64,000 nucleotides of DNA from an uncultured Clostridia bacterium. GTDB taxonomy: Bacteria; Bacillota; Clostridia; Christensenellales; UBA1242. Numbering within the stretch: the stretch's first letter is position 1; each line of letters begins with the position of its first letter. Positions 13,367 through 53,302 of the stretch are shown here, one piece after another. A program made the translations under genes and the position numbers. The notes under the pieces were generated by a model. The model searched no databases. It saw only the letters and a list, made by a program, of their open reading frames with translations, and was not told where the DNA came from. Location: contig CAKVFE010000001.1 in NCBI GenBank assembly GCA_934746645.1, forward strand, positions 588,626-652,625. The letters are read 5' to 3'.

Positions 13367-14005
13367 ATGAAAGCTATAATATTTGATTTTGATGACACAT
13401 TATACAATGGAACTGTATGGAATAATTGGCCAAAATATATGCACAAATTTTTGGCAGAACTTTTTGGTGGACAAGAAAGAGCCAACCAATTTATAACCAA
13501 ATATCATTTTGATACTCTACCATTTATAGGTCAATCTGTTGCTAGTGCATTGATTAAAGAGTTAGGAAGTGCAGAAAGTTTTGTAAAGTATCAATCAGAC
13601 AATGTATACCCACTTGAAGCTCCTAACCTACGCTTTATAGATGGCGACTTTTTAAAAGACCTAAAAAAAGATTATCATCTATACATACTTAGCAACTCTC
13701 CAGTACGATATGTAAGACAACATTTGGCTGAAGGCAATATTGACGAAAACATATTTGATGGTATTTTTACCAACTCATTTGAAGTAGAAGATATATCAAA
13801 ATATTCACAATACCAACACATACTAAAACTAGAAAATGTTAGTCCTAACCAAATAATAGCTGTAGGCGACAACTACACCAACGACATTGTTCCTGCACTT
13901 AAACTTGGACTTAACGGATATCACGCACCTACACTAGAAATGGTGTACAATCTTAGAAATGTCATTAATGATATTGAAGATGACAGCCAACAACTTAAAG
14001 CATAA
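13367..14005 (+). CDS. HAD-family hydrolase
   Basis: Motif I 'IIFDFDDTLY', motif IV 'VGDNYTNDI'. Confidence 0.8.
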   Translation: MKAIIFDFDDTLYNGTVWNNWPKYMHKFLAELFGGQERANQFITKYHFDTLPFIGQSVASALIKELGSAESFVKYQSDNVYPLEAPNLRFIDGDFLKDLKKDYHLYILSNSPVRYVRQHLAEGNIDENIFDGIFTNSFEVEDISKYSQYQHILKLENVSPNQIIAVGDNYTNDIVPALKLGLNGYHAPTLEMVYNLRNVINDIEDDSQQLKA

Positions 14006-14017
14006 GAGAATAATTGA

Positions 14018-26735: not shown

Positions 26736-26954
26736 TAATCATAAAAACTTATTTATAATTAACAACTTAAATTAAAAACTTAAAATAATTAATCAAATAT
26801 AAACTATGTGATGTTGATTTACTCACTATGTTCGTAAATCAAGTTGCTAATCGCAATTCCACGATAAATCGTGGCATCACAGTTTGAATAAACATCAGTT
26901 ATACGAAAATATTGCTTTGCACTGCTTTCGTCTAACTTCCGATAATATTAATTA

Positions 26955-29588
26955 TTAAATTTCGTCATTGTTGTCTTCGGTGTTTTCACTGCTTTCAGCG
27001 TCAACTTCTGTGTCCATATCTAAATCTGCATTTTCTTCTAATGCAGGTGCTGGAGCAACTGGAGTTTCTTCCAAACTTTCAGCCAATTCTTCTTCAGCTT
27101 CTTCGCTAGGAGTTACAGCAACACAAACTATCTTAGCGTCATCTTTTAGACTCATTACTTTAACACCTTTTGTGTTACGACCAATAATGCTTATTTCGCT
27201 TGCTTTGATACGAATAATTGTACCATCATCAGCAATCATCATTACATCGTCTTTATCAGTAACTTGTTTTAGATTTACTAGGTTGCCAGTTTGTTCGTTA
27301 AATACGCCTGCTTTAATACCTTTACCTGCTCTACCTTGTACTCTATAGTCGTCTTGACTAGAACGCTTACCATATCCTTTTTCAGATATAGTCAACATAT
27401 AAGCACCCATCTTAATAACAGACATATCAACTACATATTCGTTTTCGTCTAAGCTTATAGACTTAACACCTTGAGTATCACGACCCATAATACGAACAGC
27501 ACGCTCGTTAAATCTTATACATTTACCAGTGCTACTTGCAATAATAATTTCGTCATTGCCGTGTGTAATATATACACTAATCAATTCGTCATTTTCAAGT
27601 AGTTTGATAGCAATCTTACCACCCTTTCTAATACTATCAAATTCGGAAATATTGGTTTTCTTAATTAGGCCTTGTTTTGTAGCCATAACTAGATATCCAA
27701 TAGTATCTGGTTTAACTGGAATAATTGTTGTTATACGCTCTTCTGGACTTAGTTGAAGTAGATTGATTATTGCTCTACCTTTACTTGTTCTTGGAGCTTC
27801 TGGAACTTCGTAACCTTTAATACGATATACTCTACCAAAACTACTAAAGCATAGTAAGTCATCATGAGTAGATGTAGTAAATATGTTTTCTACAAAGTCT
27901 TCTTCTTTAGTGGTATGAGCTATTATACCTTTACCACCACGATGTTGACTCTTGTATTCGGATACAGGCATACGCTTAATATATCCACCGTGAGTTAAAC
28001 TAATAACAACTTCTTGTTCTTCGATTAAGTCAGCAATATCTATATCACCAAAGTCTGTACTAATCTCAGATTTTCTTGGTTCGCCATATTTTTGTTTGAT
28101 TGTAAGCAAGTCTGTCTTAATAATGTTAAGTAGTTTGTCCTTATTGGCAAGTATACTTTGTAACTCAGCAATTAGTGCGTGAACATCAGCCAAATCTTGT
28201 TTAAGTTTTTCAACTTCTAGACCTGTCAATCTTTGCAATCTCATTTCTAGTATTGCAACAGCTTGTTTTTCAGTAAGCAAGAATCTTTCCATCAATTTGG
28301 TTTGAGCTTCTACTTTATCATTACTTTCTTTGATAGTCTTTATTACTTCGTCAATATTAGCTTGAGCAATCATAAGACCTTCTAAGATATGTGCTTTAGC
28401 AAGTGCTTTATCTAGGTCGAACTCAGTTCTTCTAGTAATAACTTCTTCTTGGAACAACAAGTAGTTTTGAAGTATTTCTTTTAAGTTAAGTATTTTTGGT
28501 GCATTGTTGACCAACGCCAAATTGATAACACCAAAACTTACTTGCAACTGACTATGTTTGTACAATGTGTTAAGTACAACTTGTGGGTTGGCATCTCTCT
28601 TTACATCAATAACAATACGAAGACCTTGTCTATCACTTTCTTCTTTGATATCACTAATACCATCAATACGCTTATTTTTTACTAAGTCAGCAATTTGCAT
28701 AATAAGTTTTGACTTATTAACTTGATAAGGTATTTCGGTAACAACAATACGATGTCTTGTACCATTGTTAAATTCTTCAATCTCACATTTACTTCTGATT
28801 ATAAATGTTCCTCTACCAGTACGGTATGCTTGGCGTATACCACTACGACCCATAATGATACCACGAGTAGGAAAATCTGGTGCAGGTATAATCTTAATAA
28901 GGTCATCAATATCCATATCTGGATTATCAATAAGTGCTACACAACCATCAATAACTTCACTTAAATTGTGAGGTGGAATATTGGTAGCCATACCAACTGC
29001 TATACCGTCACTACCATTAACTAACAAGTTAGGGAATCTAGCTGGCAATACACTTGGTTGAACTTCACTATCATCAAAGTTAGGGATAAAGTCAACTGTG
29101 TTTTTGTCTATATCAGCCAGCATTTCAGATGCAACTTTACTTAGTCTTGCTTCAGTATAACGCATTGCTGCTGGAGGGTCACCGTCCACAGAACCAAAGT
29201 TTCCGTGTCCGTCAACAAGTGGAGCATTAATAGTAAAGTCTTGTGCAAGTCTTACCAAAGCATCATATACAGCTGTGTCGCCGTGTGGGTGATATTTACC
29301 AATAACATCGCCGACTATACGAGCACATTTTTTATATGCTTTATCATTAAACAAGTTAAGTTCGCCCATAGCATAAAGTATACGACGATGAACAGGTTTT
29401 AGCCCATCTCTTACATCTGGTATAGCACGGCTTACATTAACTGCCATTGCATAAGCTATAAAAGATTTTTCAAGTTCTTCCTTAACTTTAATATCCAATA
29501 TTTTTGTATTATCTATATGATTAGTTAAATTTTCATTTTCTGTATTTTGATTATTAACTATCTTATCGTTATCTTTTTCGTTTTCCAT
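26955..29588 (-). CDS. gyrA: DNA gyrase subunit A
   Basis: '[21 protein letters not shown]', 'GKYHPHGD' and active-site region '[10 protein letters not shown]', with beta-pinwheel C-terminal repeats and an acidic tail. Confidence 0.97.
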
Positions 29589-34112: not shown

Positions 34113-35207
34113 ATGGAAATAAAAAGTATTCAGTTAAAAAATTTCCGTAATTATACTTCTCAGCAAGTTAATTTTAAAAACGGACTTAATATTTTAGAAG
34201 GCAAAAATGCTCAAGGTAAAACCAATTTACTAGAAGCAATTTTTTTGTGTGCTATTGGTAAAAGTCCTCGTACTAAGAAAGAAAAAGAACTTGTAAAATG
34301 GAACGAAAATATGGGTAAGGTTACGATAGAATTTTCCAAACTTACCGGTAATAAAAAAATAGAGTTGTATTTGTTTTCTAATCAAAACAAAGCTATAAAA
34401 ATAAATGGCGTTCCTATAAAAAAATTGGGCGAACTTATGGGCGAACTTAATGCAATATATTTTTCGCCAGACGAACTTAAACTTGTCAAAGAAAGTCCAG
34501 AAGAAAGAAGACGCTTTATGGATATAGACTTATGTCAATTTGATAAGAGATATTTTTATACTCTCAACAAATACAACAAAATCCTAGACCAGCGTAACAA
34601 ACTTTTAAAATCTGGCAACAATCAAAGTATAAAAGATACTATCAGTATCTGGAACGAACAACTTGCCGAACAAGCTTGTTATATCATTATTAAAAGACTT
34701 CAGCTTGTCGAACAACTAAAAATTTATGCCGAAAAGGCACATTATTATTTGACCGACAACAACGAAAAAATGACATTGGAATATGTTGGACTTAACACTG
34801 TAGACAAAGACACCTTAAAACAAGAACTTCTTAATCTATATGATAAGAGTTTAGAAAAAGATTTAAATCTTGGATTTACTACAGTTGGTCCACATAGAGA
34901 TGACTTAAAAATATCTGTCAATGATATAGATGTAAGACATTTTGGTAGTCAAGGTCAACAGCGTAGTTGTGCATTGAGTCTAAAACTAGCCGAATTGGAG
35001 ATATTTAAGTCCAACCTTAAAGAATATCCAGTCCTATTATTAGATGATGTATTGAGCGAATTAGACCTATCTAGACGAGAAAAATTACTAAAGATAATCA
35101 ATAATTTTCAAACTATACTTACTTGTACCGAATACAATATTGATTTGCCTGCCAATGTATTAAAAGTTGATAGTGGCAAAATTGTTGATAGTTATACACA
35201 AAGTTAA
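34113..35207 (+). CDS. recF: DNA replication/repair protein RecF
   Basis: 'LKNFRNY', Walker A 'GKNAQGKTNLLEAI', signature 'GSQGQQRS', Walker B 'VLLLDDVLSELD'. Confidence 0.93.
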   Translation: MEIKSIQLKNFRNYTSQQVNFKNGLNILEGKNAQGKTNLLEAIFLCAIGKSPRTKKEKELVKWNENMGKVTIEFSKLTGNKKIELYLFSNQNKAIKINGVPIKKLGELMGELNAIYFSPDELKLVKESPEERRRFMDIDLCQFDKRYFYTLNKYNKILDQRNKLLKSGNNQSIKDTISIWNEQLAEQACYIIIKRLQLVEQLKIYAEKAHYYLTDNNEKMTLEYVGLNTVDKDTLKQELLNLYDKSLEKDLNLGFTTVGPHRDDLKISVNDIDVRHFGSQGQQRSCALSLKLAELEIFKSNLKEYPVLLLDDVLSELDLSRREKLLKIINNFQTILTCTEYNIDLPANVLKVDSGKIVDSYTQS

Positions 35208-35283
35208 TATTTAATTTTGCTTACCTATCTTTTTGTGATATCATAATAAATGCAATTATTAAAAAATAAAAAAGGAACTACTA

Positions 35284-36627
35284 ATGTTAAAGATTGATGA
35301 AATTTGGCAAAAGACCTGTATAATACTTCAACACGAAGTTACAGCTGTATCTTATGACTTATGGATAAAATCCTTAGAGCCATTAGATTATACTGACGGA
35401 GTGTTGTATCTATCTACTTCTAGCGAAACAGCCAAACAAAGAGTATTGAAGTTACACGAAAATCAAATTAGGACTGCTCTTAATGAGATAGAACCTGAAA
35501 TAAAAGATTTTAAAGTACTTGACCCAGATGAAAAAGAAAATTATTTAAACAAACCTGTTGAAGCCGAACAAGAAGTTAATAAGACTACCCCATTATGCAA
35601 ATTTATACCTAAGTACACTTTTGATAATTTTGTAGTCGGCAACTCCAACAAATATGTTTATGCTGCAGCAAGAGGTGTAGCCGAACACCCATTTGATAAG
35701 ATAAACCCACTATTTATATATGGTGGCGTTGGACTTGGCAAAACACACTTGTTACACGCTATAGGCAATTATCTTACAAAGCACAATCCAGAACTAAAGA
35801 TACTTTATGTTACTTGTGACCAATTTACTCGTGACTATGTAGAAAGTCTTAAAAGTAGCAATATGCAAGCCAACATTGAATATAAAGAAAAATATCGTAG
35901 CGTAGATGTACTTATGATTGACGATATCCAATTTATAGCCAATCGTACAGGTACTCAAGAAGAATTTTTCCATACCTTTAACGACTTGTATCAAAATCAA
36001 AAACAAATCATTATTGCTTCAGACCGTCCACCAAAAGAGATAGCAAGCCTTGAAGAAAGACTAAGAAGCAGATTTAGTATGGGTCTTATGCAAGATATCC
36101 AAACTCCAGATTTTGAAACAAGACTTGCAATCTTGCAAAAGAAAGCTTTACAAGACAAATATAGTGTAGATGAAGAAGTTATCAATTTTATAGCCGAACG
36201 CTGTGATACCAATATAAGAGAACTTGAAGGTATGCTAAGTAAAGTAAGTTTTTATGCTAGCCTTACCGGCAAACCTAGTGCTACCCTAGAAGATGTCAAC
36301 GAAGCTCTAAAAGACCAAGTTACTACTACAAAACAAAGTCTTACAGCTGACCGTATTATTGATTGTGTATGTAAATATTTTAGTATCTCTAAAGATGACC
36401 TTGTAGGTAAAAAGAAAAATAAAGAGATAGTCGAACCTAGACAAATATGTATGTACCTAATATGCGAAATGCTTGACCTTCCACTAGTAAGCGTAGGTCA
36501 AATATTTGGTGGTAGAGACCATACAACAGTTATACACGCAAGAGAAAAAATAAGTGACCTAATTAAAGAAAACAACCGTATTAGAGTTACTGTCAACGAC
36601 CTAAAGAGTATGGCCAATCGCACATAA
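35284..36627 (+). CDS. dnaA: chromosomal replication initiator DnaA
   Basis: 'FDNFVVGNSN', Walker A 'GGVGLGKTHLLHAIG', 'LMIDDIQF', and DNA-binding domain IV 'GGRDHTTVIHA'. Confidence 0.97.
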   Translation: MLKIDEIWQKTCIILQHEVTAVSYDLWIKSLEPLDYTDGVLYLSTSSETAKQRVLKLHENQIRTALNEIEPEIKDFKVLDPDEKENYLNKPVEAEQEVNKTTPLCKFIPKYTFDNFVVGNSNKYVYAAARGVAEHPFDKINPLFIYGGVGLGKTHLLHAIGNYLTKHNPELKILYVTCDQFTRDYVESLKSSNMQANIEYKEKYRSVDVLMIDDIQFIANRTGTQEEFFHTFNDLYQNQKQIIIASDRPPKEIASLEERLRSRFSMGLMQDIQTPDFETRLAILQKKALQDKYSVDEEVINFIAERCDTNIRELEGMLSKVSFYASLTGKPSATLEDVNEALKDQVTTTKQSLTADRIIDCVCKYFSISKDDLVGKKKNKEIVEPRQICMYLICEMLDLPLVSVGQIFGGRDHTTVIHAREKISDLIKENNRIRVTVNDLKSMANRT

Positions 36628-36840
36628 AACACACCAATTTGTGGATATGTTGATAACTTTTAAAAGTTATACACCGAGTTATACACAATTAAAAACACTA
36701 CATATTGTGGTGTCAATGACGAAATAAAGTCATTTAAAAGACTATAGGTTGTGTTTTTGATAGGTTGTCCACATTTGCACAGTGCTAATAATAATAATTA
36801 TAATTAAAAAAATAATAATTTTACTTTAAGGAGAGAAAAA
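36628..36840. other. oriC: oriC (dnaA-dnaN intergenic origin with DnaA boxes, GC cluster, TAA trios and AT-rich unwinding tract)
   Basis: Four 9-mers each within one mismatch of TTATCCACA: TGTGGATAt 36640-48, TTATaCACc 36667-75 (two mismatches), TTATaCACA 36679-87, TTgTCCACA 36765-73. They are followed by 'tttGCACAGTGC', (TAA)4 at 36786-97 and a pure A/T tract to ~36830. Confidence 0.75.
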
Positions 36841-37941
36841 ATGAAATTAATTTGTGATGGTTTGGATTTGTCCGATGCAGTTATGAAAGTCATAAAAGCA
36901 ACTAGTCAAAAGACTACTAATCCAGTACTAGAAGGTATCAAACTTGTAGCTGAAGATGATACACTAACATTAAGTGCTACTGACCTAGAACTTTCTATGG
37001 AAAAAAGTATTAAAGCCGAAGTATTTATTGATGGCGAAACAGTTGTACCGGGTAAATTTTTTGCAGAGTACATAAAGAAACTTACCAACGAACAAATCGA
37101 ACTTACCTGCAACGAAAGAAATATGTTGGAGATAAAGTATACAGATAGTACTGGTAATATCCAAGCGTTAAGTGCTGAAGAATTCCCTACTATGAAAAGA
37201 CTTGAAAATGCTGAGTATTTTGAGATAACATCTAAAGATTTAAAATCTCTTATTACTAAATCAGTATTTTGTGTATCTACAGAAGATAGTAGACCAATAC
37301 TAAAAGGTGTATTGTTTGAGATATCTGATAAGAAGATAAAAGCAGTTGCACTAGATGGTTATAGACTTGCTATGGTTAATAAAGACCTTATCAATAGTTC
37401 TTCCAACTTTACTTGCATTGTTCCTGCTAGAAGCTTAAACGAAATAAGCAAACTTTTGGAAGACAGTGACACAGTTATTAAAGTACATGTAACCAAAAAT
37501 TATTTAATGGCAGATGTCAACGATACTAAGATAATAACAAGATTGTTGGAAGGTGATTTTATCAATTACAAACAAATCATTCCTACACAATTTACAACCG
37601 AAGTTACTATCAACAAAGCTCAACTTGAAGATGCCCTAGATAGAGCAAGCCTACTTAGTCGTATAGACAGAAACAACTTAGTTAAGTTTGATATTACAGA
37701 CAAACTTATGATGTTGAGTAGTAAGAGTGATATTGGAGATATTAAAGAAAACATTACAGTTGCTCTTACAGGTAATGATTTAACAATTGCATTTAATGTA
37801 AGATACTTTAATGAAGCATTAAGAGTTATTAATGACGAATTTATCAAACTAAGCTTTACTGTTCCTTCTGCTCCTTGTATTTTAAAGAGTAGCGAAACAG
37901 ACGAATATGTATATCTAATACTTCCTGTTAGAGTTGTTTAG
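36841..37941 (+). CDS. dnaN: DNA polymerase III beta sliding clamp
   Basis: 366 aa with SD 'aaggagag'. 'RPILKGVLFE', 'LDGYRLA' and C-terminal 'YLILPVRV'. Confidence 0.95.
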   Translation: MKLICDGLDLSDAVMKVIKATSQKTTNPVLEGIKLVAEDDTLTLSATDLELSMEKSIKAEVFIDGETVVPGKFFAEYIKKLTNEQIELTCNERNMLEIKYTDSTGNIQALSAEEFPTMKRLENAEYFEITSKDLKSLITKSVFCVSTEDSRPILKGVLFEISDKKIKAVALDGYRLAMVNKDLINSSSNFTCIVPARSLNEISKLLEDSDTVIKVHVTKNYLMADVNDTKIITRLLEGDFINYKQIIPTQFTTEVTINKAQLEDALDRASLLSRIDRNNLVKFDITDKLMMLSSKSDIGDIKENITVALTGNDLTIAFNVRYFNEALRVINDEFIKLSFTVPSAPCILKSSETDEYVYLILPVRVV

Positions 37942-38186: not shown

Positions 38187-39203
38187 ATGATTATGAAAAC
38201 ATATACAACTTTAGATAAAAAACTAAACTATGATTTTGAAATTTTAGATCACGATAGTGATACAGACTGGAGAGATTTTGAACTTTTAGGTAAAAGTGTA
38301 TATCCTAAAGAATTTGAGATACTAAGCAATGAGTCTTCTACTTGGGGTGGTTGGGATTATGTTACTGAAGACAATGGCTCTTGTTTTTTAGATGATGTAA
38401 TATTTTTAAAACAAGACAATAAGCGTATTGGTTGTGCTGTTGTGGCCAAACAATCCAATATCTATAAAAACATAAATATTAGAAAACATACATTGTCTTT
38501 AAAATATCTTATATTAGACCCTGCTATAAAAGATACCAATGCAAGTAGTTGTCTACTTAATGCAGTGTTTGATTATGCTAGAGAAAATGACTACGAACAA
38601 GTCGAATTTGTGGCTGATATTGATACTAGAAAATTTAAAGAATCAGACAATGTTTATCTATTAAATGGTGCTAATAGCATATCTGTCAACAAAGGCAAAA
38701 ACGACACAACTAAAAAAGTATTTTTCCGTTGTGATGTTGATAGTCAACTTAGAGATATATCTAAAGCTGTATTTGAAAGTTTTAAAAGACTATATAAAAA
38801 AGATTTAAATGCAATAGACGAAAAAATCTTAGAAAACGAAATAGCAAAAAGATACTGTTGTATAGTTAAGTCTAAAAAGAAACTTACTAAAGATGATATT
38901 GAAAGAATCAAACAAAGTACCCTACTTAAAGATTTGTCTATCACTTTAAAAGATATGGTTAAAAATAAAAACGAATCAGACCCAACACGAAATACTATAG
39001 AATGGCTAAAATACCATAAAGTTATTAAGACAATATTGCCTGTAATTAAAAAATCAAGTGTTGTTAGCGACTTAAGCAAAGTACAACATTTTGACAAAGT
39101 CGAACGCATAATGTGTGGAGTTGCTGACGAGTTGAAAAATGAAACTAATGTAAGTCTTATCAAAAACAATCTTGATAGTGGCGAACTAAGTAGACTACAA
39201 TAA
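38187..39203 (+). CDS. hypothetical protein (338 aa) with possible N-terminal GNAT-like fold
   Basis: Long ORF between dnaN and rpmH. 'IGCAVVAKQ..LKYLILDPAIKDTNASSCLLNAVFDYARENDYEQVEFVAD' is GNAT-like but lacks a clear Q/RxxGxG/A motif. The C-terminal half is Lys/Glu-rich and helical. Confidence 0.55.
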   Translation: MIMKTYTTLDKKLNYDFEILDHDSDTDWRDFELLGKSVYPKEFEILSNESSTWGGWDYVTEDNGSCFLDDVIFLKQDNKRIGCAVVAKQSNIYKNINIRKHTLSLKYLILDPAIKDTNASSCLLNAVFDYARENDYEQVEFVADIDTRKFKESDNVYLLNGANSISVNKGKNDTTKKVFFRCDVDSQLRDISKAVFESFKRLYKKDLNAIDEKILENEIAKRYCCIVKSKKKLTKDDIERIKQSTLLKDLSITLKDMVKNKNESDPTRNTIEWLKYHKVIKTILPVIKKSSVVSDLSKVQHFDKVERIMCGVADELKNETNVSLIKNNLDSGELSRLQ

Positions 39204-46336: not shown

Positions 46337-46417
46337 TTAAGTCATACTTATTGATATATATAACTTATAAATAATATAAAGTATTTAAATTAAAAGCATA
46401 TAAATAATATAAAATAA

Positions 46418-46448
46418 GAGCATTGTAATATAAACAATGTTCTTTTTT
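46418..46448 (+). terminator. intrinsic terminator after mnmG
   Basis: 9-bp stem 46418-26 / 46434-42 (one G-U pair), then a T-run 46443-48. Confidence 0.7.
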
Positions 46449-46833
46449 ATATCTTTTATAGCGAAAAATAGCAAAATATGTAGTATGTTATATAATAATA
46501 ACTAAAAATAAGTTATTTTGTAATAACTAATAAAATTTTTGAGATATAAAATAAATAAAATAAACAAAATTGACTTTAAAGTTATAAAATAATAACTATT
46601 ATTATTTAATAAATTAAGCTAAGTATAGGGTATAGTTGAATATAATAACAAAAGATATTGTTGTTATAAGTGTTGGTAGCTGATTAATGATGTGATTTGG
46701 TTCTGATGTAAAATATTAGGTTTATATTAAGGATAGAATGGAAACATTACGAAGACAAAATATGTAGATTAATCTGTAGATTATTGTTTTGTTTTTAATA
46801 ATTTATAGTGTTAAAGTGTATTAAAAATATGCT

Positions 46834-46884
46834 TGCGTCTATATAAAATTATTGTATTTGGCTAATAAAATGAATATGCGTCTA
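46834..46884. repeat. two copies of the GC-cored motif (A/T)TGCGTCTA
   Basis: 'aaaaatatgctTGCGTCTAtataaaatt' (core 46834-41) and 'ATATGCGTCTA' (46874-84). Confidence 0.7.
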
Positions 46885-47110
46885 ACGATTTTATTATATT
46901 AATTTTAATTAAATTTTAGTTAAATATTTTAACTAAATTTAATCTCTTAATTGCTATAAATTCATAGCTTAGAGATGTGGCGAAAGTTTATGATTTGATT
47001 GTTTATACCGACAATATTAATATAATTTTGGTCTATTATCTGATATAATTATCCGGTATTAATATGATTAATTATTTATACTTTAAGTTGTAATTAAGTG
47101 TGTATAAGGG

Positions 47111-47235
47111 TGCAAATTTTGCATCTAAATTTAACTAAAAATTGCTAAAGAATAATAAAATATCAACTCAAAAATTAAACAAAAATTGTGCAAATTTTGC
47201 ATAATTTTATGATTGTAAAAAGTGCAAATTTTGCA
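47111..47235. repeat. three exact copies of the 13-bp palindrome TGCAAA-T-TTTGCA
   Basis: Exact copies at 47111-47123, 47189-47201 and 47223-47235 (the third extends to GTGCAAATTTTGCAC). They lie in ORF-free DNA. Confidence 0.85.
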
Positions 47236-47823
47236 CTTTTATTATTAAATCATATTAAAATATAGTGATTCTGTTCCATTATTTTAAATATAGCGAATTT
47301 ATAGAAATTTAGGCTTAAAAATATATTAATTTTTTTAAATTAGCGACTTTCGTGATTTTAGATGATATATTGGTCATTTCAAGTTGTTTATTTACGATAA
47401 TATTGGATTTTTGATACATTTTCATATATTTTGTCCAAATAATTTGCAATTTGATGGTTTTTTACTGATTTTTTGGTGTTTATATTGATGGTTTTATTCT
47501 TTAGCATTAAAAATATTGATTTTAAGCTTCATTGCTGATTTATTTGGTAATTTTATCTAAAATATAGCAAATATTAGGGTATATTGATAAATCGGTAATA
47601 TATTTATCTTTTGTAATGTATATAATTTGCTACAGCTAATTATTTTTATTCTTTATAGTTAACAATAAATAATATTGTTTAAGAGTAGGTAATGGTATTA
47701 TATAGAATATATTAAATATTGATATCCAATTTTACTTTATGTTTGTCTTATTTTACTAATTGTGGTATACTTAATATATAATAAAAATGTCGTTAATTTT
47801 ACAATTTTTACAACAAAATATTG

Positions 47824-47834
47824 TAGACGCATAT
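47824..47834. repeat. TAGACGCATAT (reverse orientation of ATATGCGTCTA)
   Basis: Exact 11-mer 21 nt upstream of parS-1. Overlaps the spacer/-10 of a possible rsmG promoter (TTACAA 47808-13 ... TATATA 47832-37). Confidence 0.7.
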
Positions 47835-47855
47835 ATAAAATTGTTAAAAAATCAA

Positions 47856-47871
47856 TGTTTCACGTGAAACA
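47856..47871. other. parS: parS centromere site 1 (perfect TGTTTCACGTGAAACA)
   Basis: Perfect 16-bp palindrome matching the Bacillota parS consensus TGTTNCACGTGAAACA. It ends 15 nt before the rsmG ATG. Confidence 0.9.
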
Positions 47872-47886
47872 TTGTGTGGAGTGTGT

Positions 47887-48597
47887 ATGGATTTTAAAGA
47901 AGAATTAAAACAAGTATTTGGTAATTATAATATAGATGTTAATGATCAACAAATTGCTTTATTTGATAAGTATTACCAACTAATATTGGAGTGGAATGAA
48001 AAGTTTAACTTAACAACTATATTACAACAAAGAGATGTTATAATTAAACATTTTTTGGATAGTTGCTTAGTTTGTGAGAGTTTAAAGGATAATGCTACAT
48101 TAATCGATGTTGGGGCTGGAGCAGGTTTTCCATCTATTCCAATTAAAATACTTAGACCTGATATTGGTATAACTATGATTGATGGCTCTAATAAAAGGGT
48201 TACCTTTTTAAATGAGTGTATAGATAAATTAGGGCTAAAAAATGCTTGCGCTATACACGAAAGATGTGAAATATTGGCTCATAAACCAGAATATCGTGAA
48301 AAATTTGATTATTGTGTAGCTAGGGCAGTGGCAGAATCTAATGTGTTGGCAGAGTATTGTTTGCCATTTGTTAAGTTATTTGGATATATGATAGCTTTTA
48401 AATCTCGTAATATCGAAGAAGAACTTGAAAAAGCTAAAAACTCTATAGAACTATTGGGTGGCAAAGTAACTGATATAAAAAATACATATATTGAAGAAAT
48501 TGATGCTGAGCGTAATTTGGTGTTTATCCAAAAGAAGTTTAAAACTCCAGTTAAATATCCTCGTGGTCAAAATAAACCAAGAACCAATCCACTATAA
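47887..48597 (+). CDS. rsmG: 16S rRNA (guanine527-N7)-methyltransferase RsmG (GidB)
   Basis: Start moved to the ATG at 47887 (SD GGAG 47878-81). 'NLT...HFLDS' and SAM motif 'LIDVGAGAGFPSIPIKI'. Confidence 0.9.
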   Translation: MDFKEELKQVFGNYNIDVNDQQIALFDKYYQLILEWNEKFNLTTILQQRDVIIKHFLDSCLVCESLKDNATLIDVGAGAGFPSIPIKILRPDIGITMIDGSNKRVTFLNECIDKLGLKNACAIHERCEILAHKPEYREKFDYCVARAVAESNVLAEYCLPFVKLFGYMIAFKSRNIEEELEKAKNSIELLGGKVTDIKNTYIEEIDAERNLVFIQKKFKTPVKYPRGQNKPRTNPL

Positions 48598-48689
48598 TAT
48601 TAGCATTATATTAATAAAATCACTTTAAATTACCCATATTTACATAAAATATGGGGTAGTGCATAGATAATTTAATAAAAAATATTAGA

Positions 48690-48716
48690 CTGTAGTTATC
48701 TACAGCCTTTTTATTT
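48690..48716 (+). terminator. weak intrinsic terminator after rsmG
   Basis: CTGTAG (48690-95) / CTACAG (48700-05), then 'cctttttattt'. Confidence 0.45.
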
Positions 48717-49006
48717 GCCTACTTTGTGGTATGTTATACTATGCTGTTATTGTATACTATGCTGTTATATTGTAATATCTATAGATACTAATTTTTTTAA
48801 TAAAATATATTACTGTTTATATTGTGTCTATATGAATACCAAAAACCCGATTTTTTTTATGTCTTATATCTTATATAGTATATGGTGGATAGTGTATGGT
48901 GTTGTGGTCTATTGTATGTATGTGTCTATGTCATGTTTTTTATGTTAAGCCGATTAAGTTTTGGCTGTTATAATATGTTTGTTTTTGCTTGATTTACCCC
49001 TAAAAA

Positions 49007-49022
49007 TGTTTCACGTGAAACA
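49007..49022. other. parS: parS centromere site 2
   Basis: TGTTTCACGTGAAACA embedded in the 26-bp perfect palindrome AAAAATGTTTCACGTGAAACATTTTT (49002-49027). Confidence 0.9.
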
Positions 49023-49146
49023 TTTTTATACTCCCCATTGTTTTTATTAACTTTTTATGTGTATATAAAATGGCTTAATTAAGCCATTATTTTGTACTGA
49101 TATCAGATATAAGAAAACTTTCCAAAATTTTTTTCTTGCTTAAAAA

Positions 49147-49162
49147 TGTTTCACGTGAAACA
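49147..49162. other. parS: parS centromere site 3
   Basis: The same 26-bp palindrome repeated exactly at 49142-49167, 140 bp from site 2. Confidence 0.9.
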
Positions 49163-49731
49163 TTTTTAACCTGTTTATCTATAGTAAAGGCGAATAATCT
49201 ATCAACAATAACTGTCTTATCATTTTAACCACATACTATAATAAGATGATTACAGTGTGTTGTATTGTTATGTGTATTGTTATGTTTAATATATTATGTC
49301 TTTGTCTTTAATTAAACATTTTTAGTTCGCTATATAGTAAATCTTAAATGTGTTTATTTTGATAGCTATTATTTATAAATCATTGGTATGATATTGTGTA
49401 TTGTCTTTTAGCCTATTTTTGATTTTTTTGTGCTTTACTGGTATATGTATGTGTACTAATGTTAATTAGTATTAATTATGCCTAACAATAAATAATGTTG
49501 GATTAAGTATATTTGGTACTATATTTATATTTAATTTTAAATAAAATTTGTTATTAAAATTAGGATAAATACCTATTTTATTGACGCAATACCATATTTT
49601 TATTGTTGTGTCAAAATTTGTATATATATCTTAACTAAATTTGTAAAAAAGATATATTTTAATTTCCATTTTTCATATATATTTGATATAATGTATATAC
49701 AATTAATAATAACTAATAAGGAAGTGATTTA

Positions 49732-50502
49732 ATGGGTAAAATTATTAGTTTCATCAATCAAAAAGGTGGCGTTGGTAAAACAACCACTTGCGTAAATATG
49801 GCTAGCTATTTGGCTGTTATGGGTAAAAAAGTGCTTCTTTTAGACTTAGACCCACAAGGCAATGCTACAAGTAGTTTGGGTATAGATAAAGAATCTGGCT
49901 TAAAGACAATATATAATGTTATTGTTGATGATAATTTGCTAGATGAAGTTATTATGAAGTCAAAATTGGATAATTTGGACATAATACCAAGTAATGTAGA
50001 CTTAGCTGGAGCTGAAATTGAGCTTGTTCAAATGAATAATAGAGAAAAGGTTGTTAAAAAGATATTGCAACCTATAAAAAATAGTTACGACTATATTTGT
50101 ATTGACTGTCCACCAAGTTTGGGACTAATTACAGTTAATGGTCTTACAGCTAGTGATTCTTTAATTATTCCTATTCAATGTGAATATTTTGCTATTGAAG
50201 GTCTTACACAATTGATGTATACAATCAAATTGGTTAAAAAACACCTAAATCCAGACATTGCAGTTGAAGGTGTTGTATTAACAATGAAAGACGCAAGAAG
50301 TAATTTGGGTAATTCGGTTGCTGCTGATGTAAATAAGTACTTCAATAATAAAGTTTATGATACAATTATCCCTCGTAATATTAGACTTGCAGAAGCTCCA
50401 AGTTATGGTGAACCAATATGTATGTATGATCCAAAATGTAACGGAGCTATTGCATATCGTACATTAACTGAAGAATTTTTGAAGAGAAACAACGACAAAT
50501 AG
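49732..50502 (+). CDS. parA: chromosome partitioning ATPase ParA/Soj
   Basis: Deviant Walker A 'NQKGGVGKTTT', 'LLLDLDPQGNAT' and 'DYICIDCPPSLG'. Confidence 0.93.
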   Translation: MGKIISFINQKGGVGKTTTCVNMASYLAVMGKKVLLLDLDPQGNATSSLGIDKESGLKTIYNVIVDDNLLDEVIMKSKLDNLDIIPSNVDLAGAEIELVQMNNREKVVKKILQPIKNSYDYICIDCPPSLGLITVNGLTASDSLIIPIQCEYFAIEGLTQLMYTIKLVKKHLNPDIAVEGVVLTMKDARSNLGNSVAADVNKYFNNKVYDTIIPRNIRLAEAPSYGEPICMYDPKCNGAIAYRTLTEEFLKRNNDK

Positions 50503-50720
50503 TCATATTTGTGTGTAATTTTCGATATTTATATTCGTATTTACATTTGTGTGTATATAATGTGTAATATCAGATATACAGCAAAAGGCTGTGTATAAAT
50601 AGTTGATATCTATGTTTTATATTAAAATATATTGAAAATACAAGAAAAATAGTTAAAATTACCACTAAAAGTGACAAAAACTAATGAAAATAACTAAATT
50701 TTAGATTAAAGGATAAAAAT

Positions 50721-51611
50721 ATGGATAATAAAAAAGGTTTAGGCAGAGGATTAGGTAGTTTACTTGGAATATTTGATGATGACGACAAAGAAGTAGAAGT
50801 TAAAAAAGATGCTTCAGGTAAAATTGAAGAAATCAATGGAGAAAGAGTTGTTGATATTGATATAAAACTTATTGATGTCAATCCTAACCAACCTCGTAAA
50901 AATTTTGACCCTACAGCACTAAAAGAATTGGCTGATTCTATCAAATTACACGGCGTTATTCAACCTATTATTGTTAATCAAACAGGTAGTAGATACATTA
51001 TAGTTGCCGGTGAAAGAAGATTTAGAGCTAGCAAGCTTGCTGGATTAAAGACAATACCTGCTATTGTTAAAAATTATACCGAACAACAAGTAAAAGAAAT
51101 ATCTTTGCTTGAAAATATACAGCGTGAAGATCTAAATCCAGTAGAAGTTGCCAACGCAATGAAAGAACTTCTTGATATTTATGGTTGGACACAAGATGTA
51201 TTGGCTGATAGATTGGGTAAAAGTCGTCCAGCTATTGCTAACACACTAAGATTGTTGACTCTTCAACCAGAAGTACTTGCTTTGATTGAAAGTGGAAAAC
51301 TTAGTGCAGGTCATGCAAGAAGTTTGGTTGTTGTTACTGACCCAGCTACACAAGTTAAACTTGCTAAATTGGCAGTAAGCAAAAAAGTAACTGTTAGAGA
51401 TTTGGAAAAGACTGTTAAACAACTTACCAATCCAACAGCAAAGAAAGTTAAAACAGAACCAAGTGCCGAACTTAAAGAATTAATCAATCTTATGCAACAT
51501 AAGTTTGCAACAAAAGTAAGTGTTATGGGTACAGATAAAAAAGGTCGTATCTATATAGATTATTATTCTAGCGATGACTTAGACAGAATACTTGAATTTC
51601 TTAATAAGTAA
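50721..51611 (+). CDS. parB: chromosome partitioning protein ParB/Spo0J
   Basis: 'GLGRGLGSLL', 'NPNQPRK.F', 'GVIQPIIV', arginine patch 'VAGERRFRA' and HTH 'QDVLADRLGKSRPAIANTLRLL'. Confidence 0.93.
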   Translation: MDNKKGLGRGLGSLLGIFDDDDKEVEVKKDASGKIEEINGERVVDIDIKLIDVNPNQPRKNFDPTALKELADSIKLHGVIQPIIVNQTGSRYIIVAGERRFRASKLAGLKTIPAIVKNYTEQQVKEISLLENIQREDLNPVEVANAMKELLDIYGWTQDVLADRLGKSRPAIANTLRLLTLQPEVLALIESGKLSAGHARSLVVVTDPATQVKLAKLAVSKKVTVRDLEKTVKQLTNPTAKKVKTEPSAELKELINLMQHKFATKVSVMGTDKKGRIYIDYYSSDDLDRILEFLNK

Positions 51612-51720
51612 TATTTCAACTAACAGTTAATTATATAATATGTTGTTGATATATCTATCAAAATAAAACTAATAAGTTTTGGATATAAAAGTAATAAATT
51701 AAAATTAAAGAAAAAATAAA

Positions 51721-51749
51721 AATATGGTTATTTTGACCATATTTTTTTA
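51721..51749 (+). terminator. intrinsic terminator after parB
   Basis: AATATGGT (51721-28) / ACCATATT (51736-43), then a T-run to 51749. Confidence 0.7.
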
Positions 51750-52374
51750 TTAAAAACCTTCAAAAATCGCTCAAAAATGTGTCATTTAAACGCATTCTGA
51801 GCGACTTTCGTATTTCTAAATGACCAATTGGTCGTCTTTTTTATAGCAATTTTAGTGATTTTTTATACCAAAATCATATAATTTGGGATAGAAAAATTTT
51901 GTTTATAAAATATTAATAACACAGATAATATTGATATCTATCTTTAGATTACTATGTTACCTATATTAAAAATAATAATTATCAATTATTATTATATGGA
52001 TTGAATTACATTCCTACTATAATGATTTTATTTTAGTAATCAATATTTAAAAGAACTTAAAATATTAACTTCCAATATTCAATCTATTCAATATTGTTAT
52101 TTCTATTTAATATCTATAGTTTACTACATTTATAAGATTAACATAATATTAAGATAATAGGGAAGTATGACACTATTACATATTTACATTTTTTATCTTA
52201 TTTATAATATATGTTTATCATACCTGTTTGTTTTTTTGCTCTAATTAGTCCATTTAATTTAAGTATTTTTTACTCTTATCTTTCATTAAGTTTGTTTATT
52301 TGTTACCCATATTATATATCGATTATCCATAATCATTTAATAAAAATACTAAAAATAGCTTTTTACAAAATGCG

Positions 52375-52449
52375 TAGACGCATATAGTTATTTGCTTTTT
52401 TACACTTATTAAGTTGTCAATACCAAACTAAAAATATGCTATGCGTCTA
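52375..52449. repeat. two further copies of the GCGTCTA/TAGACGC motif
   Basis: 'atgcgTAGACGCATAT' (52375-85, exact 11-mer in reverse orientation) and 'aaaaatatgctATGCGTCTAaatatttt' (core 52441-49). The flank is nearly identical to the copy at 46823-50. Confidence 0.7.
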
Positions 52450-52576
52450 AATATTTTAATGATTTTTGCATTTTAGATTGGTATCTCATTAATAAAATCA
52501 TATAGATAATATAAGAATACAAAAAAAGTACTTAAACCTAAATTTAAGTACTTTTAATTTTCTTTGTTTTTAATAA

Positions 52577-53302
52577 TTAATATTTAACTACAACAGTTTC
52601 GCCATCTGGCATTGTTACAGTAACTTCGCCTTCTTGACTATCAGCTGGAGTTTCAGCAGGTGTTTCTTCTTCAGTCTTATCACCAGCTGCACCTTCTTGG
52701 TTTTTACCTAATACATCATCAATTCTGTCTTGAAGAGTTTTAGTAACCCATTCATTAACATATCCGTATACAAAGTTACTCATTTTGTTCTTTTCCATTA
52801 AGGTTTTAACACCTGTAACACCACAAATACTTAATATAGATGCAAGACCTAAACCTACGCAACCTAATAAGAAACCTTTTGCAGCACCGAAGATTAAACC
52901 TAGAACTCTGTTAAGTCCACTTAATGCAGAACTACCACTTGTTGCATTGTCAAATAATTTTGATAGTAACCAAATAACAAGTTTAATTAATAACCATACA
53001 GCCAAAATTGATATGATTACTGTACAAGCATTACCAATTTGTGCTGCAGTATATGTTTTTCCAAATACTGTTGCACCGTCTGCATTGATCCAACCCCATT
53101 TTTGTAGAAGTTTACTGAAGAACTCATTGGCTTTGCACATTTTATTAAGTAGAGCAGCAACATGTTTGCTTACCAAAATAGCAACTACAATTGATAATGC
53201 AGAACTAAAAATGCTTAAAATGGATTCAAACAAGCCCTTGCAGATACCAACAATAGCAAATATTACTATTAAACAAATAAATACAATATCTACCCAACCC
53301 AT
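52577..53302 (-). CDS. cvpA: CvpA-family membrane protein
   Basis: 'MGWVDIVFICLIVIFAIVGICKGLF..' is a typical CvpA N-terminus. Four TM spans and an acidic Thr/Glu C-terminal tail. Confidence 0.75.
   Translation of the reverse strand: MGWVDIVFICLIVIFAIVGICKGLFESILSIFSSALSIVVAILVSKHVAALLNKMCKANEFFSKLLQKWGWINADGATVFGKTYTAAQIGNACTVIISILAVWLLIKLVIWLLSKLFDNATSGSSALSGLNRVLGLIFGAAKGFLLGCVGLGLASILSICGVTGVKTLMEKNKMSNFVYGYVNEWVTKTLQDRIDDVLGKNQEGAAGDKTEEETPAETPADSQEGEVTVTMPDGETVVVKY

Follow-up and report, generated by a model that had tools for sequence, protein, structure and literature searches.

Why should the chromosome-partitioning genes of a bacterium lie among almost 4 kb of DNA that holds no open reading frame (ORF)? 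The question is raised by a locus of 6240 nucleotides (nt) at positions 46337-52576 of the 64-kb stretch analysed here (the window), in which rsmG, parA, and parB are set apart from one another and from their neighbors by four spacers, designated S1 to S4. An earlier note on this DNA had called the locus, which we refer to as the island, a gene-poor "centromere island," had explained it by an expanded ParB-loading platform with additional DNA-binding partners, by fully eroded genes, or by unannotated non-coding RNA genes, and had ranked it the window's best candidate for an undescribed DNA-protein system. Our analysis indicates that the region is probably the chromosome's canonical origin-proximal ParABS centromere, in which the surplus DNA is mostly unconstrained filler with a few selected cis-elements; the locus is a real but largely ordinary bacterial centromere, a few conserved motifs of which are unexplained.

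The spacers sum to 3867 of the 6240 nt, so that 62% of the locus is non-coding; recomputed, the gap lengths and total are those given before:

46337-47886: S1, between mnmG and rsmG; 1550 nt, no ORFs, G+C content (GC) 0.19, strong A/T-tract phasing
48598-49731: S2, between rsmG and parA; 1134 nt, no ORFs, G+T-rich on the plus strand, holds two of the three parS sites (parS2 and parS3), little phasing
50503-50720: S3, between parA and parB; 218 nt, strong A/T-tract phasing, promoter-like site at 50632-50659
51612-52576: S4, between the convergent genes parB and cvpA; 965 nt, no ORFs, GC 0.19, phasing in the 5' third

No other gap in the 64 kb is as long as S1, S2, or S4: those that follow measure 534, 514, and 465 nt, and most of the rest about 10-300 nt, as had been observed. 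No ORF longer than 89 codons is present in the spacers, even when TGA or TAG is read as sense, and independent gene callers applied to seven strain contigs made no calls in them. That the spacers are AT-rich is true, but it does not set them apart, their GC being 0.203 versus 0.205 in all other intergenic DNA of the window (four-fold sites, 0.13; whole window, 30%).

The identity of the locus is given by its parS sites and by the genes around them:

47856-47871: parS1, a perfect TGTTTCACGTGAAACA between the rsmG promoter and the rsmG ribosome-binding site
49001-49028: parS2, core at 49007, in a 28-nt perfect palindrome TAAAAATGTTTCACGTGAAACATTTTTA; invariant in strains
49141-49168: parS3, core at 49147, in a second, identical 28-nt palindrome; missing in strains L161 and L166
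47887-48597, plus strand: rsmG (gidB), Pfam GidB E = 1e-46; conserved ATG at 47887 (TTG at 47872 in the ORF finder)
49732-50502, plus strand: parA (soj), Pfam AAA_31 5.5e-72, CbiA, and ParA; KGGVGKT motif
50721-51611, plus strand: parB (spo0J), ParB_N 1.3e-33, HTH_ParB 2.3e-34, ParB_C 1.2e-6

The three perfect copies of TGTTTCACGTGAAACA (at 47856, 49007, and 49147, spaced 1151 and 140 nt) fall within about 1.3 kb and match the 16-bp palindromic parS TGTTNCACGTGAAACA, for which 0.53 matches at three or fewer mismatches would be expected by chance. They bear out the count of three made earlier and are the window's only ones, a scan of the whole 64 kb having found no other full or half site, and the spacers containing no degenerate one. 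The half-site TGTTTCAC is confined to the three full sites, with about 3.5 occurrences expected by chance in 64 kb, which suggests that stray half-sites are mildly avoided in the window. ParA, encoded beside parB, has a deviant Walker A motif; ParB has a ParB_N domain, which binds cytidine triphosphate (CTP) and contains the GERRxR box, a helix-turn-helix (HTH) domain, and a C-terminal dimerization domain. The motifs LGRGLGSLL, GERRFRA, and ENIQREDLNP can be read in its translation, and it bears the signatures of ParA interaction, CTP binding, and HTH.

The position of the locus relative to the replication origin is equally typical of ParABS. The reference genes, assigned by Pfam, and the right border are as follows:

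35284-36627: dnaA
44468-46336: mnmG (gidA)
52577-53302, minus strand: cvpA, the right border of S4

Four DnaA boxes (at most one mismatch) are clustered at 36640-36773 (135 nt), inside the 213-nt gap between dnaA and dnaN; the cumulative GC skew reaches its minimum and turns near 34 kb, and the spacers carry the positive GC skew expected of the leading strand right of the origin. The island sits on that strand, 10-16 kb to the right of the dnaA-dnaN region, and is origin-proximal in the sense usual for ParABS. The description as a centromere island is sound in this respect: the only parS sites of the window stand beside canonical parA and parB, about 10-16 kb from the DnaA-box cluster.

For comparison, relatives were read as loci of +/-10 kb (167 fetched overall). 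Four congeneric species (L001-L004; L081 is the same genome as L001) have RsmG proteins 75-79% and MnmG proteins 81-91% identical to those of the window, and in family-level relatives RsmG is about 50-55% identical. RsmG scans of metagenomes and genomes did not reach the window's own species, but an exact-ParA look-up did, finding the same-species protein in 144 blocks of an assembly collection, from which seven human-gut metagenome loci were retrieved; the window was compared with four full-length same-species contigs, giving five strains. Contigs of the species, ERZ27271092 k141_136120 among them, derive from human-gut samples. The nearest public relatives in the look-up are uncultured gut Clostridia, labelled Christensenella or Clostridia metagenome-assembled genomes.

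The position of parS1 is kept in L001-L004, each of which has three or four parS at matching places, one shortly before the rsmG ribosome-binding site and the other two or three between rsmG and parA. Between strains the number varies: in L161 and L166 the segment 49028-49140 is deleted, taking a hairpin and one parS with it and leaving two or three sites per strain, and this looks like recombination between the two identical 28-nt palindromes. Natural strains can thus do without one of the three parS. An expanded ParB-loading platform, in the form first proposed, finds no support, given this dispensability and the lack of extra, degenerate, or half parS in the spacers; additional DNA-binding partners are possible. 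Among family-level relatives mnmG and rsmG abut and there is no noc, and arrays of 4-11 parS occupy 1.1-3.3 kb of ORF-free DNA right after parB (upstream of parA in L033):

L005 15542-15989: parS or parS-like array
L010 6752-7509: parS or parS-like array
L011 14740-15478: parS or parS-like array
L015 13175-13839: parS or parS-like array
L033 12069-12372: parS or parS-like array

Because such arrays recur across the family, a parS cluster in long gene-free DNA beside parAB appears to be a trait of the clade and not a peculiarity of the window. The L015 array has 11 parS-like copies, often spaced 36-39 nt, in the manner of a plasmid-type iterated centromere.

On loading at parS, ParB dimers form CTP-dependent clamps that spread into the neighboring kilobases; the ParB-parS complex is segregated by ParA and recruits SMC. 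In the island ParB would load at the three parS and spread, and through parS1, which lies in the rsmG leader, transcription of rsmG could be tied to occupancy by ParB. The surplus DNA would owe its existence to local turnover of genes and elements and to insertions and deletions, which made and reshaped filler, and not to a sequence-specific system. The selected elements within that filler would be promoters, terminators, TATGCGTCTA boxes, a triplet of palindromes, and an element of 62 nt.

Comparison between strains indicates how little of the padding is constrained. Divergence is 0.10-0.12 in S1, 0.10-0.13 in S2, 0.06-0.10 in S3, and 0.06-0.09 in S4, against 0.025-0.15 (typically 0.05-0.07) at third codon positions; the spacer alignments contain dozens to hundreds of gap columns, and 61-77% of their columns are invariant versus 91-97% in genes. 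With spacers diverging at least as much as third codon positions and so few invariant columns, most of the padding appears not to be under sequence constraint, and to call the locus the best candidate for an undescribed DNA-protein system was an overstatement. Between species the alignable DNA comes down to parS with its A/T flanks, the promoters of rsmG and parA, the rsmG leader, the TATGCGTCTA box, and the roughly 62-nt element. All four congeners have enlarged gaps at the locus, of widely variable length (129-987 nt for S4); what recurs among relatives is the gene-poor parS/parAB layout, while gap length and gene content vary. At the start of S1, the segment 46329-46407 (the mnmG end and the first part of the spacer) aligns twice to most strain contigs, because of which these strains appear to carry a tandem duplication or insertion of roughly 76-78 nt that has no counterpart in the window.

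Signals for transcription account for several of the conserved blocks:

46416-46444, plus strand: terminator-like hairpin after mnmG, from the terminator scan; overlaps the strain-invariant block 46426-46451
47735-47790, plus strand: rsmG promoter block, extended -10 TGTGGTATACT at about 47761-47771; invariant in five strains
48687-48708: bidirectional terminator-like hairpin after rsmG, from the terminator scan
49066-49092, plus strand: terminator-like hairpin AAAATGGCTTAATTAAGCCATT between parS2 and parS3, from the terminator scan
49583-49697, plus strand: parA upstream region, with variant box TTGACGCAAT at 49581-49590, invariant block 49619-49680, and extended -10 TTTGATATAAT at 49682-49692
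51723-51745, plus strand: terminator-like hairpin of parB (ATATGGT..ACCATAT, then a T-run), inside the strain-invariant block 51696-51741

The rsmG promoter block matches TGTGATATAAT (ATGATATACT in L001, ATGTTATAAT in L003) and aligns in all four congeners. Since rsmG and parA have separate conserved promoters, parB is preceded by the promoter-like site at 50632-50659, and rsmG, parA, and parB each have a terminator-like hairpin behind them, the arrangement is not that of a tight operon. Hairpins of this kind are enriched in the island (9 found by the scan, 1.0 expected), and the type seen at 49066-49092 recurs in the mnmG/SPFH intergenic region of L001 and L004, just past the 3' end of a gene for an SPFH protein. 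Just past the rsmG terminator, at 48726-48790 on the plus strand, tandem copies of TATACTATGCTGTTAT contain an extended -10-like TGnTATACT; these motifs could drive a transcript through parS2 to the hairpin at 49066-49092.

Two families of short repeats stand out from the filler:

46832-46884, plus strand: paired GCGTCTA boxes in direct orientation, CTTGCGTCTA at 46832 and, 43 nt further on, TATGCGTCTA at 46875
47824-47833, minus strand: TATGCGTCTA box in the leader of rsmG, 22 nt before parS1; strain-invariant
52370-52449: paired inverted boxes, ATGCGTAGACGCATA at 52370 and TATGCGTCTA at 52440; both kept in strains
47109-47237: palindrome (G)TGCAAATTTTGCA(C), present three times (47111, 47189, and 47223)

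The five GCGTCTA copies reported for the spacers resolve into four exact TATGCGTCTA sequences (46875, plus; 47824, minus; 52375, minus; 52440, plus), where shuffles predict 0.05, and a fifth box at 46835, within the variant CTTGCGTCTA at 46832; three more GCGTCTA 7-mers occur elsewhere in the window, in coding DNA. All five are kept in strains, with a single substitution (T-to-C in L162, in the 46832-46884 pair) over four strains and five sites. Across species the rsmG-leader box stays 22-30 nt upstream of the rsmG-proximal parS; L001 and L002 have it at the window's position, L004 has it in inverted orientation, and L003 has a degenerate form. In the window and in L001, L002, and L004, a box-related sequence precedes the -10 element of parA by about 70-95 nt. 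Every copy of TATGCGTCTA within the genus lies inside the island, and outside the genus only L066, among the 167 loci, has it, in two copies; the outer pairs occur only in the window's species. Because position is conserved while orientation is free, the pattern argues for a protein-binding site rather than a promoter or RNA motif, and the boxes probably bind a regulator of rsmG and parA. An apparent co-variation of the box to GGTGCA in L003 was rejected, since GGTGCA is common there (10 copies). Candidate protein-recognition sequences of the island are TATGCGTCTA and GTGCAAATTTTGCAC.

The 13-nt palindrome TGCAAATTTTGCA is present in three copies against 0.01 expected from shuffles. Its arms are conserved in strains, its center alternates between A and T, and it is absent from L001-L004, hence species-specific; it could not be assigned to a known operator class, LacI and Fur-type sites being those considered. 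We regard the triplet as a species-specific, operator-like element. A further sequence, AGCGACTTTCGT, has two copies where shuffles give 0. Of the other repeats listed before as threefold, TGCAAATTTTGCA holds up, while the 11-mer TATCAGATATA occurs only twice, the common unit being the 10-mer ATATCAGATA with three occurrences, one inverted. The 10-mer exceeds chance in a window-wide shuffle yet not the general 10-mer background, and it is mutated at all three sites in most strains; it was rejected as a motif and taken as chance. Repeated 10-11-mers in general are only 1.5-2 standard deviations over Markov shuffles, and the excess of repeats at k>=12 is due to parS and the 13-nt palindrome. Measured against shuffled sequence, then, TATGCGTCTA, TGCAAATTTTGCA, and AGCGACTTTCGT are far in excess, and generic 10-11-mers barely so, while ATATCAGATA does not rise above the general 10-mer background.

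The element of 62 nt is the remaining conserved feature:

51777-51845, plus strand: conserved 62-nt element, consisting of AAACGCATTCTGAGCGACTTTCGT, about 8 nt, the hairpin ATGACCAATTGGTCGT, and a T-run
47322-47381, plus strand: degenerating second copy of the 62-nt GCGACTTTCGT element, nhmmer E = 1e-8; core C-to-T in three of four strains

Built around GCGACTTTCGT, it is also found in L001, L002, and L003, at varying positions in the island, and at 51784-51845 it is invariant in 61 of 62 nt between strains. It folds better than shuffles (z = -4.3). RNAalifold showed no compensatory pairs; the strain changes in the upstream arm are C-to-U and would keep G-U pairs. The element may possibly be a small RNA or an insulator, ending in a terminator hairpin. 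Seen across relatives, conservation of the island's motifs is mixed: parS, the box, the promoters, and the 62-nt element are kept, while the palindrome is species-specific and ATATCAGATA is mutated in most strains.

Clustered origin-proximal parS are known from Caulobacter crescentus (PMC5815017) and Myxococcus xanthus (PMC3778016), Pseudomonas aeruginosa has four oriC-proximal parS (PMC4368675), and Streptomyces and Listeria have 20-23 (reviewed in PMC7333895). The window resembles these chromosomal ParABS systems in a 16-bp parS that fits the Firmicute consensus, in several parS beside parAB near oriC, and in canonical ParA and ParB; variation between two and three parS among strains is in keeping with the known sufficiency of a single site. 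It differs from them in the non-coding share of the locus, in the terminator-like hairpins 3' of rsmG, parA, and parB, and in the siting of parS, which avoids genes and keeps to long ORF-free gaps, the 5' leader of rsmG among them. In B. subtilis, one parS is within spo0J, and in B. subtilis-like genomes gidA-gidB-(noc)-soj-spo0J are tightly packed. The order mnmE-mnmG-rsmG-parA-parB is the same here, with a gap at the position that noc has in Bacillus, but unlike the Bacillus system of Noc and Noc-binding sequences (NBS), the window has no noc, ParB paralog, or remnant of either, its relatives have no noc there, and its repeated motifs appear unlike parS-like palindromes. Plasmid centromeres with iterated sites and AT-rich spacers, such as parH of TP228 (PMC3130281) and parC of R1 (PMC2241845), likewise have repeated sites in AT-rich DNA by partition genes, as do the 11 parS-like repeats of L015, whereas the window has three widely spaced type Ia chromosomal parS and not short iterons. 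On present evidence, clustered parS by parAB are known, and what is new here is the uncultured lineage and the unusually gene-poor layout, not a new system.

A property of the padding that does not depend on its exact sequence is the phasing of its A/T tracts. Periodicity of AAA/TTT at 10-11.25 bp was scanned in 1273 overlapping 400-nt windows, and 22 of the top 25 fall in S1, S3, and the 5' third of S4. For fully intergenic windows of 150-200 nt the median is 5.1 in the island versus 2.9 in other intergenic DNA, and in S1 52-63% of such windows exceed the coding 95th percentile, versus 7% in other intergenic DNA. Shuffle tests gave p<=0.003 for S1 (p = 0.003) and S4 of the window, for S1 of L001, and for S1 and S4 of L003, with control regions not significant; the phased spacers of L001 and L003 cannot be aligned to those of the window. 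S2, with two of the three parS, has little phasing. Helically phased A-tracts imply intrinsic DNA bending, and the phased tracts of S1, S3, and S4 suggest intrinsically bent DNA. Curved DNA and A-tract periodicity are known genome-wide in prokaryotes, with unclear role (PMC3940949), and in an archaeon A-tract content correlates with the positioning of Smc-ScpAB at roadblock sites (PMC11840125). The 10-11-bp phasing over hundreds of base pairs is alike, but in the window a single 6-kb locus concentrates the signal, and the remainder of the 64 kb shows it only weakly.

Could the spacers instead be a graveyard of fully eroded genes, SPFH, ASCH, noc, and others, with the motifs as by-products of decay? 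Congeners do hold genes in the same gaps: an SPFH/Band-7 gene of roughly 290 amino acids (aa) on the minus strand in the mnmG-rsmG gap of L001, L002, and L004 (three of five species) and an ASCH-domain gene between parA and parB in L003 and L004 (two of five). For this reason gene loss appears to have contributed to gap length, and the loss of SPFH would lie on the window's lineage, since the closest congener, L001, retains the gene; spacer GC also fits a relaxed non-coding composition. No remnant came to light, however, when the spacers were searched by tblastn with the relatives' extra genes, by blastx against 8,943 ORFs from 160 related loci, by tblastx against congeners, and with SPFH DNA (nhmmer) and protein (hmmsearch) profiles; ParB used as a proxy for Noc in tblastn of the 64 kb matched parB alone, with neither a paralog nor a noc remnant. 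The searches gave no Noc, small-ORF, or pseudogene signal in the spacers, and the analogy between the rsmG-parA gap and the place of noc fails, the gap holding other genes or nothing in all relatives examined. Gene loss, though it did add length, does not explain most of the padding, because in L001 the intact SPFH gene is flanked by 746 + 324 nt of non-coding DNA, and decay leaves the conserved boxes and the phasing unexplained. Very old decay may still be compatible with the negative searches, and erosion as the general explanation is unlikely. A mobile-element origin of S1 was rejected, S1 having no similarity to 72,556 plasmid and 50,697 phage records. Filling of the spacers by unannotated non-coding RNA genes is more doubtful still. 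It would suit the excess of terminator-like hairpins, those at 49066-49092 and 51820-51835 being attached to no gene, the conservation, folding, and G-U-preserving changes of the 62-nt element, and a structured repeat found at these gaps in relatives, where 6 of its 22 pairs covary. Yet Rfam 15 gave no match at gathering score in the window and L001-L004 and only chance-level matches at E<=5 on the island (the best, RsaE, 24 bits versus a gathering score of 79), and a tRNA/tmRNA scan gave none; the 62-nt element shows no compensatory pairs, the structured repeat has neither copy nor remnant in the window's island, and conserved blocks total only about 350 of 3867 nt. Of the earlier proposal there is left one candidate, the 62-nt element with its terminator-like end, belonging to no Rfam family. 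In gammaproteobacteria oriC adjoins gidA, and long non-coding DNA with bent segments next to mnmG (gidA) might recall a second or displaced oriC; but the four DnaA boxes in 135 nt sit in the dnaA-dnaN gap instead, the spacers have only five scattered one-mismatch boxes (seven across the whole 6.2-kb island), and the switch of the GC skew lies near 34 kb, outside the 46-52 kb of the island. The placing of the DnaA boxes and the skew led us to reject this identity, which is extremely unlikely.

A different alternative grants the centromere and gives the padding a function: the spacers would be selected as bent, transcription-poor DNA that helps ParB-CTP clamps to spread or condense or Smc-ScpAB to be positioned, and a second protein, bound to the TATGCGTCTA boxes near both outer edges and at the two inner promoters, would delimit or regulate the complex. 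Phasing far stronger than in other intergenic DNA, recurring in L001 and L003 without sequence conservation, speaks for it, as do the long ORF-free DNA accompanying parS arrays across the family, the conservation of the boxes and their confinement to the island in the loci examined, the relation between A-tracts and Smc-ScpAB in the archaeon (PMC11840125), and the fact that the reason for parS clustering is itself an open question (PMC7333895). Against it stand the near lack of phasing in S2, where two of the three parS lie, the much shorter and unphased spacers of L002 and L004, an evolutionary rate that looks neutral, and the restriction of the outer box pairs to the window's species. We hold this reading to be improbable. 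Its boldest form, that bent gene-free padding and a second, TATGCGTCTA-recognizing protein shape and bound the ParB/SMC domain and couple rsmG and parAB expression to it, has a slimmer chance again.

The preferred reading, an ordinary ParABS centromere in mostly unconstrained filler, has difficulties of its own. Bacterial genomes usually delete neutral DNA, and because at least 1 kb of padding persists in three of five species and in every strain sampled despite this, a purely neutral account is insufficient. If the padding is under selection at all, curvature is our conjecture for its target; the conjecture is in turn weakened by the absence of phasing in L002, L004, and most family-level relatives, which speaks against a general requirement, and by the abundance of local 9-13-nt micro-duplications in the spacers, which could contribute to the phasing signal.

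What the locus offers is a natural comparative set, this uncultured, low-GC lineage of gut Clostridia and its relatives, for asking whether ParB spreading or SMC loading favors transcription-free or bent DNA. The clustering of parS and the sequence context it needs are acknowledged open questions (PMC7333895). If the padding were indeed selected as a regional centromere, the clade-wide parS arrays in ORF-free DNA would reflect selection for gene-free landing pads. The practical value lies in a well-delimited centromere annotation and a few testable conserved cis-elements, and is limited because most of the padding is unconstrained; as a caution, strains should be compared before a long AT-rich gap containing repeated motifs is called a new system.

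The structured repeat mentioned above, a candidate small RNA of about 115-175 nt, is represented in the window outside the island, at 26776-26955 on the minus strand, directly 3' of gyrA. Its core, UUAUUCAAACUGUGAUG ... CAACAUCACAUAG, is invariant, and its hairpins vary in sequence while keeping their pairing, with compensatory changes in 6 of 22 predicted pairs. For the copy in the window the folding z is -4.05; no Rfam match was found even at E<=10. In relatives it is sited in rsmG-parA or parB-cvpA gaps. The near relative L167 has three copies in its island, where the window has 0, and two of them replace the middle of S4 (about 51950-52342). The copies are as follows:

L001 14201-14374, minus strand: structured repeat
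L004 10804-10988, plus strand: structured repeat
L004 9404-9519, plus strand: structured repeat
L007 6786-6931, minus strand: structured repeat
L015 10660-10771, minus strand: structured repeat
L088 4272-4383, minus strand: structured repeat
L167 23-139, plus strand: structured repeat
L167 3398-3512, minus strand: structured repeat
L167 3247-3366, minus strand: structured repeat

A structured-looking segment of the L001 parB-cvpA gap, 13930-14010, has the closing stem CCCGCCT...AGGCGGG and a GC above its surroundings, with no Rfam match at gathering score.

To the left of the island the gene order by Pfam is gyrA (minus), gyrB (minus), glmS (minus), recF, dnaA, dnaN, a 338-aa unknown, rnpA, yidC, jag, mnmE, GNAT, and mnmG, and rightward from mnmG it is rsmG, parA, parB, cvpA (minus), DUF1256, and ftsH. 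The origin layout (34113-37941) is atypical for a Firmicute: only 76 nt separate recF from the dnaA gene that follows it, which leaves no upstream DnaA-box region, the sole DnaA-box cluster is that in the dnaA-dnaN gap, and gyrB, gyrA, and glmS are on the opposite strand, left of the origin. The 338-aa ORF (38187-39203, plus strand), between dnaN and rnpA, is without a Pfam match; in L001, L002, and L004 its place upstream of rnpA is taken by a syntenic ORF of 323-333 aa.

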